From assembly GCA_964428315.1 (NCBI GenBank), contig CAYRXT010000005.1:12592-76591 (forward strand): 64,000 bases of DNA, read 5' to 3'. Below are positions 53,096-61,704 of the stretch, piece by piece. Within the stretch, counting starts at the first letter, position 1, and each line of letters begins with the position of its first letter. Source of the DNA: an uncultured Planctomycetales bacterium (lineage in GTDB: Bacteria; Omnitrophota; Gorgyraeia; Zapsychrales; CAYRXT01). The position numbers and the translations under genes are program-made. Under the pieces are notes generated by a model, which saw nothing but the letters and a program-made list of their open reading frames with translations, was not told the origin of the DNA and searched no databases.

Positions 53096-54160
53096 CTACC
53101 TGTGCCTCTTCAGGTCAATAAGGTCCTTGATCATGGCCATGTCCTTTTTCAGATCCTGAACCACCTGCCGGAGATCCCTGACCCTCTCCTTAAGATGGAC
53201 GTTGGTCTCTTCAAGCTCTTTGATCTGAAGGGTCAGGGCCTCCACGGGGAGCGGAACGGCCAGTTCGGTTTCTAGTCCGGCAATCGCCGTTTCCACCTGC
53301 CCGATCTCGCCCTCCAAGGCTTGCCTTTCTTCTTCCAGGCGATCCTTCTTCTCGCGCGCCTCCTCGAGCGGCCGCTCCTTACGTTCGACACCTCTCTGTA
53401 TCTCCTCCTTGAGCTTCTCAACTCTTCGGCTCAATCGCGCATTGTCTTTACGTACCCGGCTTATCTGTCTCGCGAGCTTTCGATTCTCGTTCTCCAGCTT
53501 TCTCAAATCCTCATCCGATAAAACCCCCTGCCGGATATCCGCAAGGAGGTCCTGTCCAGCCGCCGCCTGGACGGCATCCGTCTCCAGGATCCTGTTTTGA
53601 ATCTTCGCGATCTCTTCCTGCGTCTTTCCGAGAGCCTGTTGTTTTTCCGACAGCAACCGGCTATGCTGTTCCTCGAGAGCGGCATGCTTTTTTTCCAAGG
53701 TCTCCACCTGTGTGCTCAACGGCAGGAGTGTCTTTTTCTCGTGATCGACCTTATCGCGAAGCCGGCCGACCTCTTTCTCAAGGACTCTCCTTTTGAGTTT
53801 GAGTTCATGAACCGTCGCATTGTGCGTCTGCCGGGAATCCGGTTCGGGTGAAGACGGCAGCACGGGCTTCCTGATCTGCGGCATAAGAAGATCAATCTCC
53901 ATTTCAAGCGCAAGGACCTGCTGTCTCAAGCGGTTGTGCTCATCCGTCAGCCTCTCGTTCTCATTGACCAGCTGAAGGGCCAGCTCTCTCAGCTCTCTGA
54001 CATTCATCCGGAGGATATTGGCGACCCATTCCGAGGGAAGGGCGAATTCTTCCTGAACCTCTGCGCCTTCGGGTGAACCCGAAGGCGCGGTCTGCGCCGA
54101 AACGGCGGCGGAAAAACATAAAAACAGGCCGCACAGCGTGAGGATACGGTGTCTCTTCAT
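53096..54160 (-). CDS. Secreted coiled-coil protein (hypothetical)
   Basis: Signal peptide MKRHRILTLCGLFLCFSAAVSAQTA followed by ~300 aa of continuous E/K/R/L/Q heptad-like sequence. Confidence 0.55.
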   Translation of the reverse strand: MKRHRILTLCGLFLCFSAAVSAQTAPSGSPEGAEVQEEFALPSEWVANILRMNVRELRELALQLVNENERLTDEHNRLRQQVLALEMEIDLLMPQIRKPVLPSSPEPDSRQTHNATVHELKLKRRVLEKEVGRLRDKVDHEKKTLLPLSTQVETLEKKHAALEEQHSRLLSEKQQALGKTQEEIAKIQNRILETDAVQAAAGQDLLADIRQGVLSDEDLRKLENENRKLARQISRVRKDNARLSRRVEKLKEEIQRGVERKERPLEEAREKKDRLEEERQALEGEIGQVETAIAGLETELAVPLPVEALTLQIKELEETNVHLKERVRDLRQVVQDLKKDMAMIKDLIDLKRHR

Positions 54161-54217: not shown

Positions 54218-55066
54218 TCATCGGCGATCTGATCTGAGCGCGTTTCGAACCAGGCGCCGGTAGTCTCCCGCCAGGGCGCGCGTATATTGTCCCGCGCGCC
54301 CCTTTCCGACGGCAAAACCCTGCACGCGGGTCAAGGGCATCACCTCGATCAGGGCATTCGTCAAAAAGGCCTCATCCGCGTCAAAAAGCTCTTCCGGCCT
54401 CATACGCTTCTGCCGGACGCGAAGGCCCCTCTCGCGGGCGAGCCTGATAACCAACCGGCGCGTTATACCGTCCAGACACCCGCTCGACAAAGAGGGCGTC
54501 ATGAGAATTCCGCTCTTAAGAACAAAAATATTGCTCCGGCTGGCCTCCGCCAGAAAACCCTTGCGGTTGAGCACAAGGGCCTCGTCCTGTCCCCGCTGAC
54601 GGGCCTTTCGCCAGGCCTGCAATAGAGGGAGGTACCGGATGGACTTGATCCGGACCAGCGGAGAATCCTCGTCGCGCCGGATATCGGAAAAGACCGCACG
54701 GTAACCGCGCTTATAAACCGCCGGGGACGGCGGCTGATAAGATGCGGACATAACCGCCAGTCGCGCCCGCTTGCCTTCCTGCCAAACCGTCAAACGGACG
54801 CGGGCGTCTCCCCGAGCGTGCTTCCCGAGGATCTCTCCCAAGAATTCCCTGATCTTCCGGCGGGGATAAGGACACGGCAGTCCAATGACTTCAAGTCCCT
54901 TCATCATCCGGGCAAGGTGTTGTTCCAGCGCAAAGGGCATACTCCGGTAAACCCGCAGCGTCTCAAAAACCCCCTTGCCGCGCAAGATTCCCGGCGTGAG
55001 CCTCCGGACAAGAGACGGCGCGGGGCGCATCATCAGCCCGTCAATCAACAAAGATTTTTTCGCCAT
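54218..55066 (-). CDS. pabC: Aminodeoxychorismate lyase (PLP fold-type IV, PabC-like)
   Basis: Fold-type IV aminotransferase core (GVFETLRV...SNIFVLKSGILMTP...GITR); positioned directly after pabB with a 26-nt overlap. Confidence 0.75.
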   Translation of the reverse strand: MAKKSLLIDGLMMRPAPSLVRRLTPGILRGKGVFETLRVYRSMPFALEQHLARMMKGLEVIGLPCPYPRRKIREFLGEILGKHARGDARVRLTVWQEGKRARLAVMSASYQPPSPAVYKRGYRAVFSDIRRDEDSPLVRIKSIRYLPLLQAWRKARQRGQDEALVLNRKGFLAEASRSNIFVLKSGILMTPSLSSGCLDGITRRLVIRLARERGLRVRQKRMRPEELFDADEAFLTNALIEVMPLTRVQGFAVGKGRAGQYTRALAGDYRRLVRNALRSDRR

Positions 55067-56495
55067 GGTCCGTTATGGGAAGGGCGTTCTTATAAACCTC
55101 CTGCAGACACAAAAACAGGGCCCGGGCCTTGATCAGTGTCTCCTCGTATTCCAGCTCGGGGTCCGAATCCGCGACGATGCCCCCGCCGACGTGAAATGTG
55201 GCCCGCCGGTTCTGAACGGCCAGCGAACGGATGAGGATGTTGAGGTCCATCGAACCGGTAAAACTGATGTAGCCCATCGAACCCGTATAAAACCGCCGGG
55301 GCGCGGGTTCGAGTTCCTGGATGATCTGCATCGCGCGGACCTTCGGACACCCGGTTATCGATCCCCCCGGTGAACAGGCCGCGATCAGGTCAAAGCAGTC
55401 TTTATGCGCTCCGAGCCGCCCCTCGATCTGGGACGTCGTCTGAAAGACCGTGGCGTATCTCTCCAATGTGCGCAGGTTTTTTACCCTCACCGAACCGTAT
55501 TCACAGATCCGTCCCAGGTCGTTACGTTCAAGATCGGTGATCATCAGAAGTTCGGCCTTGTCTTTCAAGCTCTCCCATAACTCCCGGCGCAGTCTTTCGT
55601 CCTCGGACCGCCGCGCGTCCCGGCGGCGCGTCCCTTTCATGGGCCGGGTATGGATCCGCCGGCCGCGCAATCTTAAAAACCGTTCGGGAGAGGCGCTCAG
55701 AAGCTGAAAATCGCCGCCGTGAAAATATCCGGCGAAACAGGAAGGCGACACTTTCCTTAACTGCCGATAAAACATGAAGGCATCCGTGTATTCCGTCGAG
55801 GAGGGCAGCGAAATGGTGAACTCCCTGGCCAGGTTGACCTGATAGACATCGCCCCGTCCGATGTGTTCCAGGGCCCTTCCCACTGATTCCATGTATTGCG
55901 CCTTGCTCATGCCGGCCCGCCAGGAAAGCTGGCGGCAGTCCGTATGAAACGCTTCTCGGCCGGATGCGTCAAACGGGGCATCCCTCCTTTGCGTTGCCTC
56001 TCTGACGACAGCCTCCGCCTCTTCAAGACGCCTCCGGGCCCGCACACCGGCGAGCATATGGTCTTTCTCAGGCAGACCCGTGGAGTAGATGACAAGTTCT
56101 CCTGTCATATGATCGATCATGATCACTCGGTCGTAGAACCCGAAGGCCAGCGCGGGGATTAAAAACCCCGGGTCGCGGCGCGGCCTCAGTCCCTCAAGCT
56201 GGATCCCGAAATCGTAACCGAAAAATCCCGCGATCCCCGCCGGAAATAACGGACCAGCCTTCCTGAAGTGCCCGCGGTACTCCGCAAAATGTCCTCGGAG
56301 TTCATCGAAGACGCCCAGGGCATCACCCCTCACCGTCAAAAAGGGATCAAATCCGATAAAAGAATAGCGCCCAAGCCCCGACCGGCGGAGACTGCTCTCA
56401 AAAAAGAACGCGTAAGGCTTGTCCTTCAGGGATTCAAACAGCTTTATACCGTCAACCGGACACCGGAATCTTTTTTCAAAGACGCGCAGGGACAT
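55041..56495 (-). CDS. pabB: Aminodeoxychorismate synthase component I (chorismate-binding enzyme, PabB/TrpE family)
   Basis: Chorismate-binding C-terminal domain (PGGSITGCPKVRAMQIIQELE...RFYTGSMGYISFTGSMDLNILIR...HVGGGIVADSDPE); start at MSLRVFEK 56495. Confidence 0.85.
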   Translation of the reverse strand: MSLRVFEKRFRCPVDGIKLFESLKDKPYAFFFESSLRRSGLGRYSFIGFDPFLTVRGDALGVFDELRGHFAEYRGHFRKAGPLFPAGIAGFFGYDFGIQLEGLRPRRDPGFLIPALAFGFYDRVIMIDHMTGELVIYSTGLPEKDHMLAGVRARRRLEEAEAVVREATQRRDAPFDASGREAFHTDCRQLSWRAGMSKAQYMESVGRALEHIGRGDVYQVNLAREFTISLPSSTEYTDAFMFYRQLRKVSPSCFAGYFHGGDFQLLSASPERFLRLRGRRIHTRPMKGTRRRDARRSEDERLRRELWESLKDKAELLMITDLERNDLGRICEYGSVRVKNLRTLERYATVFQTTSQIEGRLGAHKDCFDLIAACSPGGSITGCPKVRAMQIIQELEPAPRRFYTGSMGYISFTGSMDLNILIRSLAVQNRRATFHVGGGIVADSDPELEYEETLIKARALFLCLQEVYKNALPITDHGEKIFVD

Positions 56496-56496
56496 T

Positions 56497-57315
56497 TTAT
56501 TCCTCCAAATGCACAATGCGGTCGACGCGGAATTCCCGTTCCTCACGCCGAAGATGACAGAACCCGACCAGTACGGTCCGGCGTCTTTCCCGGACGATCC
56601 TTATGGGCGATACGCGCCGCACCGTCCGCGACCCGTAATACGGAGAGAAATACGTCATGTTGACCGGTCTGTCTTCACGGATGGCGCGGTTCAATATGTC
56701 CATCGTCAACTTTTCTTTCTGCGCGGTGTGAGACGTATAGCCGAAATGCGCCGCGAGGTCCTGGATGTCGTTGATCTTTCTCTCCCCCGCCAGGCTCAGC
56801 AGGGGCGCAAAGATCTCATATGTCAACATGACATCGGACATCGCCCTGTGTGTCTGCTGTTGCACGGCCCCGAAAAAACGGGCGACCACCGCCAGGGAGT
56901 AACGCCCCAGTCCTGGGAGCAGGAGCCGGGCCATCTTCAGCGTATCGATCACGGGGGCCTCCAGATCAAGGCGGCCGCCCGTCAGCGACAGCTCGCTGTT
57001 CAAAAAGCCCACGTCGAACCGCGCGTTATGCGCCACCAGGCACGCCCCTCGGGCGAACGCCAGAAACCGCGGCAGGACTTCATCCGCCGCCGGGGCCCCG
57101 TCCACCATATCCTGGGATATGCCGTTGACGGCCATGGCGCCGGGAGAAATCAGCCGCCGTGGATTGACCAGGCTCTCAAATCGCCCGACGGGTTTCATCT
57201 TCTTCAGGCGCAGCCCCGCGATCTCGATGAGCCTGTCGCCCCATCTTGGCGATAGCCCGGTCGTCTCCACGTCAAAGATCACGAACTCGGTGTTATGGAT
57301 GGGATCCCCTTTCAT
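56497..57315 (-). CDS. DnaQ-like 3'-5' exonuclease (DEDDh) fused to a C-terminal WYL domain
   Basis: Exo I FVIFDVETTGL, Exo II LVAHNARFDVGFL, Exo III HRAMSDVMLT. C-terminal RRVSPIRIVRERRRTVLVGFCHLRREEREFRVDRIVHLE matches the WYL consensus (R-V-P...WYL-GYCHLR...R-FRLDRI). Confidence 0.75.
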   Translation of the reverse strand: MKGDPIHNTEFVIFDVETTGLSPRWGDRLIEIAGLRLKKMKPVGRFESLVNPRRLISPGAMAVNGISQDMVDGAPAADEVLPRFLAFARGACLVAHNARFDVGFLNSELSLTGGRLDLEAPVIDTLKMARLLLPGLGRYSLAVVARFFGAVQQQTHRAMSDVMLTYEIFAPLLSLAGERKINDIQDLAAHFGYTSHTAQKEKLTMDILNRAIREDRPVNMTYFSPYYGSRTVRRVSPIRIVRERRRTVLVGFCHLRREEREFRVDRIVHLEE

Positions 57316-58217
57316 GAGTCGACCCGGCTTACGGCATAAACGGGTTCCAGATGCGTGGGGCAAAACGACAGTTTGGCCCGGCTGACCGCGGGCATGGCAA
57401 AATCGTCCATGGCGTTAATGAAACAGAAATCCCTCAAAACCGGATCGTCACAGAATTCCCGGAAGATGAACGTCGCCGCCCCTTTAAGCGACGGATCGGC
57501 GATCTCGAAGAGCACGCAGAATGTCGTGCTGTTGAGGGGGAAACCGAAGGTGTAGGCCCTGATGTCGCCCCCGACGGAAACCGTCCGGCCCTCAAGCCCC
57601 AGTTCCCGGCAAGACGTCATGGCCAGTTCGTGCACGCGGCGATTTTCGTCCAGCATGGCCCGAAAAACCGGATCCGCGATGCGCTGACGCTTAACGTCCG
57701 CCCACCGGTCATAGAGCGCCAGGCATTCCTCCTTCCGGCCGCCGTCGAACACGGCGTACGCGATATCTTCCTGCCTGGCGAAAACATTATAGTCGCCGCG
57801 TCTTGACTTGAAGGCGTTGCCCCGGAGTCCGGCGACATCCCGCCTGTAATAAACGAATTCATATCCCCTTTTATAAATCCGGAACTCTCCCCCGTTGCAA
57901 CACGCCAGCATGCCGCGCGGGACGTTCTCAATGCGCCCCGCGGAAGAGAGCGGGGCCATCGCCTTTAACCGCATGAGGCCCGCCGCCAGGACGCGCGGAC
58001 TCACCTCACGGCCGAGGGGCGGGAGGTAAAGAAAGACGCCCCCGTCGCTCTCGGCCATAAGACATAAACATCCCTCAATCATCTCCAGCCCGTAAGAAAA
58101 GAAATCTTTCCAGAGAAAGATGTTCGCGAAAGAATAGCCCGAAAGCGGCCGTCCGGTTGCGTCGAGAAACTCTTCGATATCTTCTCTGGCCTCCCAGAGA
58201 TCCGCTTCCGCGATCAC
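57312..58217 (-). CDS. DUF2156 / LPG_synthase_C-like protein (GNAT-fold, aminoacyl-tRNA-dependent transferase-like)
   Basis: FANIFLWKDFFSYG and LMAESDGGVFLYLP resemble the C-terminal aa-PG synthase domain of MprF/LysX. GTG start with a 4-nt overlap with YkgJ; ATGA overlap with the exonuclease gene. Confidence 0.5.
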   Translation of the reverse strand: MIAEADLWEAREDIEEFLDATGRPLSGYSFANIFLWKDFFSYGLEMIEGCLCLMAESDGGVFLYLPPLGREVSPRVLAAGLMRLKAMAPLSSAGRIENVPRGMLACCNGGEFRIYKRGYEFVYYRRDVAGLRGNAFKSRRGDYNVFARQEDIAYAVFDGGRKEECLALYDRWADVKRQRIADPVFRAMLDENRRVHELAMTSCRELGLEGRTVSVGGDIRAYTFGFPLNSTTFCVLFEIADPSLKGAATFIFREFCDDPVLRDFCFINAMDDFAMPAVSRAKLSFCPTHLEPVYAVSRVDS

Positions 58218-58759
58218 GCTTCACCCGCAATCCGAATCCCTTCAATCTTGAAGAGATATTCCAGTTCGTCTTCATATGCGGCATAGTCCCCGGCCAGCGA
58301 CCTGTTATCTCTAAGATAGGCGAGGATGTCTTCACCGCAAAAATATTTCCGCAGATATTCGACGTGGCCCATGAATTTCGGAGACTGCCGGAAATCCCGG
58401 ACATAAGGACAGTGCCGGTGCACGGCGACCTCAAAATCACCTCCATGGCGCACCAGAAGAAAAGGATAGAAGCGGCATTCGAAAGGCCGCGTCCTGTAGA
58501 TCTGGCAGAGGTTATCCTCCGGCGAAAGAAAACCGCAGAGACAGCCTCCCCCGGCACAGCCGCGGGCGCGGACCCTCTCATCCGGTCCGGCCGCGGATGA
58601 TCCCTTGAACATCTCGCGGGCCAAAGGGTTCTGCTCGAGGATTCTCTTTTCCGACGGTGTCAACCGCGGGCGCCAGACAGAATCGGCCTCCTTGAAACGG
58701 CAGCACCCTTCGCATGAAAGGCAATACGCCTCTTCTACAAACTGTCTGAGTTCATCCAT
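58214..58759 (-). CDS. YkgJ-family Fe-S/zinc cysteine-cluster protein (second copy in window)
   Basis: CLSCEGCC (CxxCxxCC) plus CRFKE, CAGGGCLCG and HCPY Cys/His ligands. Start at MDELRQ ~58759; the track start is further upstream. Confidence 0.6.
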   Translation of the reverse strand: MDELRQFVEEAYCLSCEGCCRFKEADSVWRPRLTPSEKRILEQNPLAREMFKGSSAAGPDERVRARGCAGGGCLCGFLSPEDNLCQIYRTRPFECRFYPFLLVRHGGDFEVAVHRHCPYVRDFRQSPKFMGHVEYLRKYFCGEDILAYLRDNRSLAGDYAAYEDELEYLFKIEGIRIAGEA

Positions 58760-58760
58760 T

Positions 58761-59177
58761 TTATTGTCCGATATACTGGACGGCCATCCTGCGCCGGCGG
58801 GAACGGTTGTCGAAATCGACGAAGACGATCTGCTGCCACGTGCCCAGGACAAGATCTCCCCCGCTAACCGGAATGGTGATTGAAGGCCCGACCACGGATG
58901 AGCGCAGATGCGAATGTCCGTTGCCGTCATGCCATGTCTGGTCGTGATGGTAGCGCCCCGGAGGGATCAGCTTGTCGAAGAGTTCGGGGATATCCTTGAT
59001 GAGACCCGGTTCAAACTCGCAGGTCGTGACAGCCGCGGTGGACCCGATCGCGCTGACGGTCACGATCCCCTCCCGGATCTTCGCCTGCTGGACGATTTCC
59101 CGGACGTCGGCTGTCACGTCCCTGACATCACCGCGGCCTTTGGTGTCGAATTCGATATATTCTGTTTGACTCTTCAT
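58761..59177 (-). CDS. YjbQ-family protein (UPF0047), second copy
   Basis: 138 aa; IVTVSAIGSTAAVTTCEFEPGLIKD...LVLGTWQQIVFVDFDN. ~35% identical to the copy at 42529..42945. Confidence 0.75.
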   Translation of the reverse strand: MKSQTEYIEFDTKGRGDVRDVTADVREIVQQAKIREGIVTVSAIGSTAAVTTCEFEPGLIKDIPELFDKLIPPGRYHHDQTWHDGNGHSHLRSSVVGPSITIPVSGGDLVLGTWQQIVFVDFDNRSRRRRMAVQYIGQ

Positions 59178-59190
59178 GAGTATATGCCCC

Positions 59191-59511
59191 TCACCTGACC
59201 GGACTCCCCGTCTTGACGTCCGCGTCCGGCTGAAGGACGCGGATCCCCGTGTCGTCCTGGGCCGCCAGCAGCATGCCCTGGGACACCTCGCCTCGGATCG
59301 TGGCCTCTTCCAGATTATTGATAACGACGATCTTGCGTCCGGTCAGCTCTTCCTTCGTGTAATTCTGCCGGATGCCGGCCACCAGCTGTTTGTCTTCTTT
59401 TCCCGTATTGACCTTGAGGACATAGAGTTTATCCGCGTTGGGATGGTCCTTCACCTCCGTGATCTCGGCCACAACAAGTTCCATCTTTTTAAAATCGTCA
59501 AGAGTGACCAT
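59191..59511 (-). CDS. csaA: CsaA/Trbp111-like tRNA-binding protein (EMAP/Myf OB-fold domain)
   Basis: LDDFKKMELVVAEITEVKDHPNADKLYVLKVNTGKEDKQLVAGIRQNY...KIVVINNLEEATIRGEVSQGMLLAA is the tRNA-binding OB-fold of MetRS C-terminus/CsaA. AAAGGGG SD; the upstream part of the track ORF is read-through. Confidence 0.75.
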   Translation of the reverse strand: MVTLDDFKKMELVVAEITEVKDHPNADKLYVLKVNTGKEDKQLVAGIRQNYTKEELTGRKIVVINNLEEATIRGEVSQGMLLAAQDDTGIRVLQPDADVKTGSPVR

Positions 59512-59629
59512 GGGGGCCCCTTTCTTTGGCGCGTTGTTGTTCAGACCGTTTCTTCCAGAAACGTATTTTAACATAGCGCCGCCGCAAATGAAAACACTTC
59601 TCCAGTACGAAAATCCCCGCGGACAATCG

Positions 59630-61287: not shown

Positions 61288-61704
61288 CTACAGACAGCCG
61301 CACGAGCCGTCATAGGAGGGATTATTGATGCACCGCCCGAGCGTGCCGTCCTCCTTGACGCAGGTGACCGTTCCCGGCATGGGCACACCGCCTTCAAAGA
61401 CCAGCGGCCGGGTCACCTGAACCCAGTCATACTCGTCTTCATCCAGCTTTGTGCAGATATAGAGGCCGGCGCGTTTTTCATCGCTGCCGTCGTCGTAATA
61501 CATCAACCCGACGTCTTTGACCGAGGCACAGAATTCCTCGGCGGAAAGACTGGCTCGCGGCGTCAGCCTTAACCGGTCGTAAACGCCAAAAGGTGACGGG
61601 TAATAGGTCGTCAGGGTCAACTTCTCCTGGCCGAAAGACGGACCGGCCGGGATAATGGCGATCAGCATCCCCAGGATGGCGCCGAAGACAAAAGTGTTTT
61701 TCAT
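61288..61704 (-). CDS. Small secreted Cys-rich protein (hypothetical)
   Basis: Signal peptide MKNTFVFGAILGMLIAIIPAGPSFG; mature ~110 aa with 6 Cys including C-terminal CINNPSYDGSCGCL. Confidence 0.5.
   Translation of the reverse strand: MKNTFVFGAILGMLIAIIPAGPSFGQEKLTLTTYYPSPFGVYDRLRLTPRASLSAEEFCASVKDVGLMYYDDGSDEKRAGLYICTKLDEDEYDWVQVTRPLVFEGGVPMPGTVTCVKEDGTLGRCINNPSYDGSCGCL

Follow-up and report, generated by a model that had tools for sequence, protein, structure and literature searches.

A single gene in the 64,000-nucleotide stretch of Omnitrophota DNA analysed here (the window) joins a DEDDh 3'-5' exonuclease domain to a C-terminal WYL domain, and this fusion (Exo-WYL) is widespread in Omnitrophota and Anaerolineae as a housekeeping gene passed on vertically. 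The architecture itself is already known: it is abundant, had been listed by 2014, and its members receive the automatic name 'Pol III epsilon'; a search of the literature on exonuclease-WYL fusions found no experimental study and only one mention, a one-line listing (Makarova et al., 2014). What is new here is that in some Omnitrophota a WYL domain and a clamp-motif-like tail alternate on orthologues of the exonuclease that occupy one syntenic slot. The protein is, in a reading that we hold with moderate confidence, a non-canonical DnaQ-like DNA exonuclease of replication or repair in which the WYL domain would serve as an ssDNA-tethering or gating module. Replication or repair of DNA is preferred as its field of action because of the closeness of the exonuclease domain to DNA exonucleases, the clamp-motif-like tails of its orthologues, and an operon linkage that is not universal.

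The fusion is encoded by one intact gene

The first-pass annotation had described one DnaQ-type exonuclease fused to a WYL domain and had named the misjoining of two adjacent ORFs as a way in which this could be wrong. The ORF is uninterrupted, with no in-frame stop codon between its RNase_T and WYL parts, and both Pfam domains score well above their cutoffs, with E-values that chance would not give, so that the fusion stands. Misjoined ORFs or a frameshift were rejected because there is a single ORF and because almost every one of some 70 full-length homologues measures 266-294 aa, one having 310 aa. A protein identical to that of the window (P0001) occurs in public assemblies. The other possible start of the ORF, a TTG at position 57363, would add 16 residues. 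In Exo-WYL homologues the FDVETTG motif begins 5-8 residues after the N-terminus, and the ATG shares bases with the stop codon of the preceding LPG_synthase_C gene (ATGA); homologue N-termini and overlap together support the ATG start given initially over the TTG. Scans of the window for tRNA and Rfam families found no RNA genes, and a scan for promoters and terminators gave a result near chance level. The features of the gene and its neighbours are collected in Table 1.

Table 1. Features of the Exo-WYL gene, its product and the adjoining genes (positions within the window; residues are those of the Exo-WYL protein).
Feature	Position	Strand	Basis or remark
Downstream partner, PabB (aminodeoxychorismate synthase I)	55041..56495	(-)	ATG 1 nt after the TAA of the exonuclease gene
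Exo-WYL gene	56497..57315	(-)	single ORF, 272 codons + TAA
WYL domain (Sm/SH3-like five-stranded barrel), residues 205-271	56503..56703	(-)	Pfam PF13280, Foldseek
Basic ligand face of WYL: R233, R256, R260, R263, R266	56518..56619	(-)	aligned to DdPif1 R464, R491, R495, R498, R501
Helical linker, residues 170-204	56704..56808	(-)	AlphaFold secondary structure, alignments
DEDDh (DnaQ/RNase_T) 3'-5' exonuclease domain, residues 12-169	56809..57282	(-)	Pfam PF00929, TIGR00573, PDB and Foldseek matches
Exo III motif H156-R-A-M-S-D161 ('h' of DEDDh)	56833..56850	(-)	H156, R157, A158 and D161 invariant
Exo II motif H96-N-A-R-F-D101	57013..57030	(-)	F100 and D101 invariant, N97 at least 90%
Exo I motif D15-V-E17 (FDVETTG)	57265..57273	(-)	D15 and E17 invariant, 42 homologues
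Upstream partner, stand-alone LPG_synthase_C/DUF2156 protein	57312..58217	(-)	stop overlaps start of the exonuclease gene (ATGA)

The exonuclease domain is closest to DNA exonucleases

Profile searches and catalytic residues place the window protein in the DEDDh/DnaQ-like exonuclease superfamily. RNase_T (PF00929) matches with E=4e-37 and 128.7 bits (cutoff 24), and the dnaq family model TIGR00573 is exceeded with 101.2 bits against a cutoff of 71.5. The residues D15, E17, D101, H156 and D161 are unchanged across 42 aligned homologues, which bears out the intact Exo I, II and III motifs noticed at first reading. When the exonuclease domain was compared by sequence with proteins in the PDB, the PolC exonuclease (2p1j) matched with E=1.6e-27, E. 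coli epsilon with 1.8e-18, the DnaQ domain of S. thermophilus (8h18) with 2e-13, ExoX with 1.6e-9 and DinG with 6e-9, whereas RNase T chains reached only 1.4e-3 to 3.3e-3; a specific similarity to the RNase T family was therefore not found (about 1e-3 versus 1.6e-27 for PolC). The top Foldseek matches of the protein model include the same set of DNA exonucleases, and the best PHROGs match is 'DNA polymerase exonuclease subunit' (4.9e-46). In sequence and structure alike, the domain thus stands nearest to the DNA exonucleases of PolC, epsilon, DinG and ExoX.

The C-terminal domain is a true WYL domain

By profile, fold and basic residues the C-terminal domain is a true member of the WYL family. 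WYL had been assigned to the C-terminal 45 aa; the domain is genuine, but it extends over about 67 residues (205-271) and is preceded by a helical linker. PF13280 matches this region with E=1.9e-16 and 60.2 bits, well over the cutoff of 21.8, so that the WYL HMM threshold proposed as a check is passed, and the protein ends 1 residue beyond the match. Neither HTH nor WCX was found in the window protein by Pfam. AlphaFold models the whole protein with pLDDT 92.9 and pTM 0.81, and the C-terminal 100 residues, modelled separately, form five strands (pLDDT 89.6). Superposition of this C-terminal model by Foldseek on solved WYL domains (PafBC, BrxR, CapW, DriD) gives an rmsd of 0.8-2.0 Å over about 69 residues. 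The top 30 PDB matches are all WYL-domain proteins, including 6sj9, 7qfz, 7tb5, 9c5g and 7tzv, and the best 19 have an rmsd of 0.8-2 Å, save one long alignment of 99 columns; 6oaw is also among the matches. The suggested comparison with characterised WYL proteins thus came out in favour of the assignment, as the fold agrees within this range and the Pif1 WYL domain aligns.

On the basic ligand face of the WYL domain, R233 is invariant and R256 and R260 are conserved in at least 90% of 42 homologues; R263 and R266 are present in the window protein. The five arginines to which they align in the Pif1 helicase of Deferribacter desulfuricans (DdPif1; Table 1) are modelled ssDNA contacts, and three of these are also predicted in Thermotoga Pif1 (PMC9964779). 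In an exhaustive phmmer search the WYL part behaves as a generic member of its family. Its relatives include proteins of about 650-740 aa with two WYL matches, whose layout would be PafBC-like, proteins of about 300-340 aa that carry WYL centrally, Helicase_C_3 proteins that carry it at the C-terminus, and many short proteins.

In the AlphaFold model the linker comprises the end of one helix (158-178), a second helix (184-191) and the start of a third (197-213), and an 'F/L-x-x-[LF]-F-G' segment of the linker is common to Exo-WYL proteins and to orthologues that consist of the exonuclease only. The '..LFG..' of this segment was rejected as a clamp motif, as it is modelled as helical and is shared with exo-only forms that bear a terminal motif of their own.

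The gene occupies a conserved housekeeping position

The GGAGGA Shine-Dalgarno sequence of pabB sits within the 3' end of the exonuclease gene, and the surrounding genes form a conserved string, tRNA_bind–CxxCxxCC–LPG_synthase_C–[exo]–PabB–PabC, in which AsnC and an aminotransferase are also found. The order tRNA_bind–CxxCxxCC–LPG_synthase_C–exo, with LPG_synthase_C directly upstream, is kept in 20 of the 22 Omnitrophota lineages, at identities down to 38%. The Omnitrophota clade L008-L010 and the two Anaerolineae loci that were inspected keep the fusion just as well but lack the tRNA_bind/LPG_synthase_C linkage. Throughout the Omnitrophota lineages surveyed, the exonuclease gene has one conserved housekeeping position, and GC content around it is homogeneous. 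A survey of homologues for association with defence islands, which the first-pass annotation had suggested, covered about 25 loci in two phyla (22 Omnitrophota and two Anaerolineae lineages) and returned housekeeping genes as neighbours. In some lineages DNA-repair genes lie near the exonuclease gene, with DinB two genes off and PolX and UvrA close by. In lineage L010 an unrelated PhdYeFM/ParE pair, the sole exception to the absence of defence genes, lies 5 kb off.

Exo-only orthologues in the same slot carry clamp-motif-like tails

Exo-only orthologues of about 206-209 aa are found in the tRNA_bind–CxxCxxCC–LPG_synthase_C–exo–PabB–PabC slot, and their C-termini read QESLF (L022), QASLF (L093/L094) and QGVFNW (L091). 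Among 51 short relatives, Q-x-[SD]-[LM]-F tails occur in 17, although the members of the QxSLF group are so closely related (one clade, at least 80% identity) that they amount to one or two independent observations, and [QE]xxFxW tails occur in 6; a random tail would match with a probability of about 3e-5. PolC loci from the same scan have the C-terminus NQLSLF. By their sequence, the QxSLF and [QE]xxFxW tails resemble β-clamp-binding motifs. A strict Q-x-[SD]-[LM]-F was found nowhere in 192 Exo-WYL proteins (72 from Omnitrophota and 120 from Anaerolineae). The C-terminus of DinB was set aside as a phylum-specific clamp-motif reference, being ambiguous, with an internal 'APDSLF'.

That the exo-only proteins are truncated or split fusions was rejected, as tblastn with six WYL queries detected no adjoining remnant and pabB follows 0-157 nt on. 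In a crude neighbour-joining tree the exo-only clades lie nested among clades that bear WYL; the clade that holds all QxSLF tails has the window protein as its sister.

Comparison with known systems

The mycobacterial DnaQ, an 'additional proofreader' composed of an exonuclease and a BRCT domain, binds the clamp via a C-terminal Q[Y/L]ALF (PMC11348249). Like the window protein it is the product of a housekeeping gene and consists of a DEDDh exonuclease followed by a small C-terminal module, with no alpha-binding segment, and its clamp motif closely resembles the terminal QxSLF of the Omnitrophota exo-only orthologues. However, the module is BRCT there and WYL here, and the window protein has neither BRCT (by Pfam) nor Q-x-[SD]-[LM]-F. 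Since the model of the mycobacterial type (NF004719) gives 101.6 against a cutoff of 389, the two proteins are not orthologous.

In the Pif1 helicases of Thermotoga elfii and D. desulfuricans (8BNV) the WYL domain likewise forms the very C-terminus of an enzyme of DNA metabolism, with neither HTH nor WCX, and the WYL domain of TePif1 is an accessory ssDNA-binding module (10.1101/163188; PMC9964779). The similarity extends to sequence (GFCTMRNDERVFRIDRILEIKE versus GFCHLRREEREFRVDRIVHLEE, E=1.4e-5), and all five arginines modelled as ssDNA contacts in DdPif1 are present in the window WYL. The partner in Pif1 is, however, an SF1B helicase and not an exonuclease, and the polarity of any ssDNA hand-off would have to differ. 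PafBC, DriD, BrxR and CapW have the same WYL fold (rmsd 0.8-2 Å), and ssDNA is a documented WYL ligand in DriD, PafBC and CapW, for which a CapW-ssDNA structure exists (9c5g); but these are HTH–WYL–WCX regulators, whereas the window protein lacks HTH and WCX and its output is a nuclease and not transcription.

On the exonuclease side, the DEDDh chemistry on DNA 3' ends is common to the PolC exonuclease, E. coli epsilon, the N-terminal exonuclease of DinG, and ExoX. WYL is absent from all of these; epsilon bears a tail that binds alpha, and in PolC and DinG the exonuclease domain lies within, or is joined to, a polymerase or helicase. E. coli exonuclease I (ExoI) combines a DEDDh exonuclease with an SH3-like barrel, as does the window protein, and its Foldseek alignment is longer (271-320 columns versus 164-198 for epsilon and the PolC exonuclease), which hints that the barrel may be co-aligned in the model. 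At 15-18% identity and an rmsd of 6.5-8 Å, and with ExoI having one more C-terminal domain as well as a site for SSB binding, the likeness of the barrels is one of analogy and not homology; the SH3-like domain of ExoI may be another accessory ssDNA-binding module.

Discussion

If the tails are taken as β-clamp-binding, the orthologous group would work at primer-template junctions in replication or repair. The QxSLF and [QE]xxFxW peptides would bind the β sliding clamp, as their resemblance to known motifs suggests, and the exonuclease would then resemble mycobacterial DnaQ, the 'additional proofreader' that is bound to the clamp. Where WYL is present, it would take over targeting from the clamp by holding single-stranded DNA, be it a template overhang, a gap or a resected end, and once bound it would keep the exonuclease at the neighbouring 3' end or license it for that end. 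A nuclease targeted or gated by its WYL domain had been suggested at the outset and this is plausible, as the five arginines match modelled ssDNA contacts of Pif1, which would suit a tether as well as a gate.

A stronger formulation, which we put forward only tentatively, regards WYL and the β-clamp-binding peptide as 'address labels' that evolution could interchange on one orthologous DnaQ-like exonuclease; Exo-WYL would then serve Omnitrophota and Anaerolineae as a (co-)proofreader, or as an exonuclease of gap repair, that does not depend on the clamp. Exo-WYL would in that case locate primer termini through the adjacent single-stranded template bound by WYL, a form of ssDNA-licensed proofreading. 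A survey of polymerases from 2026 did not find proofreaders in some lineages, and an exonuclease of this kind, if real, could fill such a 'missing non-canonical proofreader' gap of some bacteria (PMC12926913).

The main rival, by virtue of the conserved operon, is an RNA or tRNA 3'-end exonuclease that cooperates with the upstream operon genes, its WYL domain binding ssRNA such as the acceptor end of tRNA; we regard this as unlikely. The upstream genes concerned encode a tRNA-binding protein, a YkgJ-like CxxCxxCC protein and a DUF2156 protein resembling aminoacyl-tRNA transferases. The persistence of this gene order across Omnitrophota lineages speaks for such a role, as do the start/stop overlap, which implies translational coupling with the DUF2156 gene, and the membership of RNase T and oligoribonuclease in the DEDDh family. 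The WYL1 protein of Cas13d systems binds ssRNA. Makarova et al. (2014), in addition, label the fused nuclease a 3'-5' 'exoRNase'. Against the exonuclease domain, however, DNases outscore RNase T by about 20 orders of magnitude, and orthologues in the same slot bear tails resembling clamp motifs. The presence of pabB, pabC, AsnC and the aminotransferase in the same string makes it look like a frozen operon of mixed function and not a pathway, the upstream linkage is missing from the L008-L010 clade and the two Anaerolineae loci although the fusion is just as conserved there, and the window holds no tRNA or Rfam RNA gene.

Likewise improbable in our view is a ligand-gated nuclease, in which the WYL domain would sense ssDNA arising from damage or a nucleotide messenger and allosterically activate an otherwise idle exonuclease, making a damage-response effector of one protein. 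Binding of ssDNA to WYL is the activating signal in PafBC and DriD, c-di-GMP is known to be sensed by one WYL regulator (PMC11880434), conservation extends to the residues of the basic pocket, and the pTM of 0.81 suggests a fixed arrangement of the domains that could pass on a signal. The protein nevertheless lacks a WCX or dimerisation extension such as WYL regulators employ to transmit their signal, and the replacement of WYL by a clamp-docking-like peptide in orthologues argues for recruitment over allostery.

The automatic annotations imply a canonical Pol III epsilon stably bound to the DnaE alpha subunit, which we consider very unlikely. Both JGI and NCBI name the protein 'DNA polymerase III epsilon subunit', it exceeds the TIGR00573 cutoff, and its single conserved housekeeping position would suit such a subunit. 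The equivalog models, though, remain far under their cutoffs (TIGR01406, 115.6 versus 222.7; NF004316, 114.6 versus 196), and the PolC exonuclease is nearer to the domain than epsilon is. The match with E. coli epsilon ends at residue ~172, with nothing beyond it like the alpha(PHP)-binding C-terminal segment; the C-terminus is WYL, and a scan for the Q-x-[SD]-[LM]-F class of pentapeptides found none after the exonuclease domain.

An anti-phage nuclease, CRISPR-associated or stand-alone, sent by its WYL domain to foreign nucleic acid, is essentially excluded by the genomic context: WYL domains are enriched in defence loci, and PADLOC returned generic Cas-associated 'DEDDh' and 'WYL' profiles and an N-terminus like the candidate PDC-S48, but these matches are at domain level (PDC-S48 aligned over profile positions 3-195 of 411), no related cas, restriction-modification, toxin-antitoxin or other defence genes occur at the roughly 25 loci, synteny is conserved and inheritance vertical in a region of homogeneous GC content, and there is no full-length viral counterpart, the BFVD viral fold search having matched the exonuclease domain only. 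The first-pass annotation had held a tRNA/RNA role to be as likely as a defence role; with defence essentially excluded by context, the closeness of the domain to DNA exonucleases and the clamp-motif-like tails favour replication or repair over both.

In the study of replication fidelity in bacteria, non-canonical DnaQ exonucleases are a topic of current interest, and the role of mycobacterial DnaQ as a clamp-bound second proofreader was shown only in 2024 (PMC11348249). The Omnitrophota provide a natural experiment in which orthologous exonucleases that share one operon slot bear WYL or, in its place, a tail resembling a clamp motif. Should the protein prove to be ordinary, it would still warn clearly against inferring immunity from the pairing of WYL with a nuclease. 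If WYL stands in for clamp docking, the function of WYL domains would reach beyond transcription control and defence, thousands of 'Pol III epsilon' annotations would be flagged as imprecise, and two poorly studied phyla would gain a testable model for exonuclease recruitment.

Reading frame, domains and predicted structure of Exo-WYL

The first-pass annotation had read the Exo-WYL gene as a fusion of a DnaQ-type (DEDDh) 3'-5' exonuclease with a WYL domain, and its coordinates proved exact, delimiting a single open reading frame of 272 codons that ends with TAA and contains no internal stop. An alternative TTG start lies 48 nt upstream; the ATG is preferred because nearly all homologues have 266-294 aa (one has 310 aa) and because it overlaps the stop codon of the upstream LPG_synthase_C gene (ATGA). 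The exonuclease motifs D15-x-E17, H96-N-A-R-F-D101 and H156-x4-D161 are present as described, and their catalytic residues show no variation across 42 aligned homologues. The C-terminal domain exceeds its Pfam gathering score and is a real WYL domain, whose length of about 67 residues had been underestimated as 45. As neither an in-frame stop nor a sub-threshold WYL score was found, the fusion stands. Plus-strand ORFs of 131, 278, 92 and 88 aa overlapping the gene (window 56268-57385) were rejected as antisense shadow ORFs arising from GC-rich coding sequence; no family supports them, and they are best left unannotated.

Features of the Exo-WYL region and C-termini of orthologues that lack the WYL domain
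Feature	Position	Strand	Remarks
tRNA_bind	59191-59574	-	upstream block
YjbQ/UPF0047	58761-59177	-	upstream block; often missing in other lineages
YkgJ-like CxxCxxCC	58214-58759	-	upstream block
stand-alone LPG_synthase_C/DUF2156	57312-58217	-	upstream block, directly before Exo-WYL
Exo-WYL	56497-57315	-	
RNase_T (DEDDh) domain	residues 12-169	-	Pfam E=4e-37, 128.7 bits
WYL domain	residues 205-271	-	Pfam E=1.9e-16, 60.2 bits; gathering score 21.8
exo-only orthologue, locus L022	7983-8603		...QESLF*, putative beta-clamp-binding pentapeptide
exo-only orthologue P0101 (L093/L094)	L093 8001-8621		...QASLF*, putative beta-clamp-binding pentapeptide
exo-only orthologue P0084 (L091)	L091 8001-8630		...QGVFNW*, putative beta-clamp-binding hexapeptide

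In the AlphaFold2 model obtained with the 42-homologue alignment (pLDDT 92.9, pTM 0.81), a helical linker connects the alpha/beta exonuclease domain to a barrel of five strands. When the last 100 residues were modelled separately (pLDDT 89.6), significant PDB matches were WYL domains only, namely PafBC (6sj9), BrxR (7qfz), CapW (7tb5 and 9c5g) and DriD (7tzv), with rmsd values of 0.8-2.0 Å over about 69 residues.

Relationships of the two domains

In a PDB sequence search, the exonuclease domain matched the PolC exonuclease domain of T. maritima (2p1j, 1.6e-27), full-length PolC (9qpc, 1.9e-27), E. coli epsilon (1.8e-18), the DnaQ domain of S. thermophilus (8h18, 2.1e-13), ExoX (1.6e-9), the DinG exonuclease of S. 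aureus (6.2e-9) and RNase T (~1e-3), and Foldseek returned the same set of DNA exonucleases among its top matches. Foldseek alignments extended over 271-320 columns with ExoI as against 164-198 with epsilon and the PolC exonuclease, the co-aligned barrel being putative; the SH3-like domain of ExoI may be a loose structural parallel to the WYL barrel.

Within its family the WYL domain is a generic one; 1.8 billion representatives contain 487 relatives of it at E<=1e-3. These include proteins of ~650-740 aa with two WYL matches and a putatively PafBC-like architecture, proteins of ~300-340 aa with a central WYL, and Helicase_C_3 proteins with a C-terminal one. Among solved structures, the best sequence matches were PafBC and the WYL at the C-terminus of Deferribacter Pif1 (8bnv). 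Residues R233, R256, R260, R263 and R266 of Exo-WYL align with DdPif1 R464, R491, R495, R498 and R501, which are likely ssDNA-backbone contacts in the DdPif1 model (PMC9964779); within the family, R233 never varies, and conservation reaches at least 90% at R256 and R260. In TePif1, the WYL has been shown to act as an accessory module that binds ssDNA (10.1101/163188). In Exo-WYL, an intact DEDDh exonuclease of DNA type and a WYL barrel whose basic face is conserved are covalently joined.

Distribution

A word-indexed search returned 1764 relatives, and the architecture is not rare. The best full-length relatives among them (41-54% identity) are all RNase_T+WYL, and those with a source name are Candidatus Omnitrophota. 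A scan of GTDB species representatives detected the fusion in further Omnitrophota MAGs, some deposited as 'uncultured Planctomycetales', and in a MAG deposited as 'uncultured Chloroflexia'. With the latter protein as query, the best 120 matches (68-100% identity) were all RNase_T+WYL; the few with an NCBI name are labelled Anaerolineae, and many bear the automatic name 'DNA polymerase III subunit epsilon'. MAGs deposited as 'uncultured Planctomycetales bacterium' (loci L011, L013, L016, L018, L020, L021) have the Omnitrophota-type syntenic block with Exo-WYL or exo-only orthologues of 38-50% identity, and their taxonomic labels are probably imprecise.

Orthologues with short C-terminal tails in place of WYL

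Many relatives of ~200 aa without WYL (exo-only) are 50-59% identical to the exonuclease domain of Exo-WYL. All three exo-only genes located on long contigs occupy the slot tRNA_bind–CxxCxxCC–LPG_synthase_C–exo–PabB–PabC, with pabB starting 0-157 nt after them. These genes are complete, and tblastn with six WYL queries found no WYL remnant beside them; the positional orthologues bear short C-terminal peptides in place of WYL. The C-terminus reads Q-x-[SD]-[LM]-F in 17 and [QE]-x-x-F-x-W in 6 of 51 short relatives; a random tail of the same composition would match either pattern with a probability of ~3e-5. The first pattern agrees with QL[SD]LF, the consensus pentapeptide for beta-clamp binding in bacteria (Dalrymple et al. 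2001, as quoted in PMC11348249), and mycobacterial non-canonical DnaQ binds the clamp via a C-terminal Q[Y/L]ALF (PMC11348249). PolC genes from the scan that found the exo-only relatives end in NQLSLF. The second pattern fits the hexapeptide class of clamp-binding motifs, of which QTSMAF of epsilon is typical. From these resemblances, both tails are predicted to bind the clamp. Q-x-[SD]-[LM]-F occurs nowhere in the Exo-WYL proteins of Omnitrophota (0/72) or Anaerolineae (0/120).

In a crude neighbour-joining tree of exonuclease domains, exo-only clades are nested among WYL-bearing ones, and every QxSLF tail falls in the clade that is sister to the window protein. Members of this QxSLF group are at least 80% identical to one another, so their tails represent few independent events. 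Two 214-aa exonucleases (P0051 and P0060) retain only the '...HLEKF' typical of the very end of Exo-WYL proteins, suggesting that they derive from deletion of the WYL barrel.

Genomic neighbourhood

On the minus strand of the window, the gene order is tRNA_bind – YjbQ/UPF0047 – CxxCxxCC – LPG_synthase_C (DUF2156) – Exo-WYL – PabB – PabC, the pabB ATG lying one base past the Exo-WYL TAA and its GGAGGA Shine-Dalgarno sequence within the exonuclease gene. When the window neighbours were compared by tblastn with all fetched loci and with Pfam-labelled contigs, the order tRNA_bind–CxxCxxCC–LPG_synthase_C–exo was found in 20 of 22 distinct Omnitrophota lineages, at exonuclease identities down to 38%, and was followed by PabB–PabC in about half of the lineages that have it. 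The tRNA_bind protein and the adjoining aminoacyl-tRNA-transferase-like DUF2156 protein may form a functional module of their own. One Omnitrophota clade has a different order, HMGL–KDPG aldolase–Exo-WYL–ACT–(DinB)–glycogen phosphorylase, and the two Anaerolineae loci lie in different housekeeping surroundings, one adjoining NIF3, PolX and UvrA. The Exo-WYL gene is a vertically inherited housekeeping gene.

In that Anaerolineae locus (L097 4303-7837), Exo-WYL is divergently oriented beside NIF3 and a polymerase of the PolX family, and UvrA lies at a distance of 3 kb; in an Omnitrophota locus (L008 8001-10502), the second gene downstream is DinB (Pol IV). Such DNA-repair neighbours form a loose association that is not conserved. 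Elsewhere in the window, a minus-strand gene downstream of pabC (53096-54160), behind a promoter-like site (54198-54170), encodes 354 aa that comprise a signal-like segment at the N-terminus and a long coiled coil; its Pfam matches are all sub-threshold. Another minus-strand gene (61288-61704) encodes a protein of 138 aa, hydrophobic at its N-terminus and rich in Cys at its C-terminus, that belongs to no Pfam family.

Proposed mode of action

The reading we favour, with somewhat better than even confidence, is that a clamp-docked exo-only form and a WYL form recruited to ssDNA both act on DNA 3' ends. If the tail peptides dock on the sliding clamp, as their motifs suggest, the orthologous group would serve repair or proofreading in trans, working on the DNA 3' ends found at gaps or primer-template junctions. 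Exo-WYL would instead be recruited through ssDNA binding by its WYL, either as a simple tether or with allosteric gating by ssDNA as in DriD and PafBC; the WYL might grip single-stranded template or gap DNA and so bring the active site to a neighbouring 3' end, or permit processive ssDNA degradation.

A role in RNA or tRNA metabolism, which the first-pass annotation had thought as likely as defence, draws on the strongly conserved, translationally coupled operon with tRNA-binding and DUF2156 proteins; however, that frozen operon also holds folate genes, the linkage is missing in another Omnitrophota clade and at both Anaerolineae loci examined, and the exonuclease affinities and clamp-like tails both favour DNA, so that we regard this role as unlikely. 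Also improbable is a ligand-gated effector, a variant of the DNA 3'-end model. A canonical alpha-bound epsilon is more doubtful still, as the alpha-binding tail is missing and Exo-WYL, although above the NCBIfam cutoff for the dnaq family (TIGR00573), falls far below those of all equivalogs, including epsilon, PolC, DinG and the mycobacterial type. A defence nuclease is scarcely credible and was rejected, because no cas genes, restriction systems or other defence genes adjoin the exonuclease gene at the examined loci, GC content is uniform (0.54-0.61), PADLOC hits were limited to generic 'DEDDh' and 'WYL' domain profiles and to candidate PDC-S48, matched at the N-terminus only, and matches to BFVD viral structures are confined to the exonuclease domain.

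Exo-WYL belongs to both the DnaQ/DEDDh superfamily and the WYL domain family, showing every feature tested for either. It lies outside canonical epsilon, the mycobacterial DnaQ type, RNase T, HTH-WYL-WCX regulators and any PADLOC system, since it lacks their tested defining features. Nearest in working mode is non-canonical DnaQ with an accessory targeting module, and the nearest likeness to its WYL is the accessory ssDNA-binding WYL of Pif1. A literature search found no experimental work on an exonuclease-WYL fusion protein; Makarova et al. 2014 already listed '3'->5' exoRNase' among WYL-fused domains (PMC4012209), and the gene itself is not new, because its architecture is catalogued and abundant. 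What appears to be new to the literature is that orthologues exchange WYL and clamp-motif-like tails, together with the housekeeping role in DNA replication or repair to which this swap would point.
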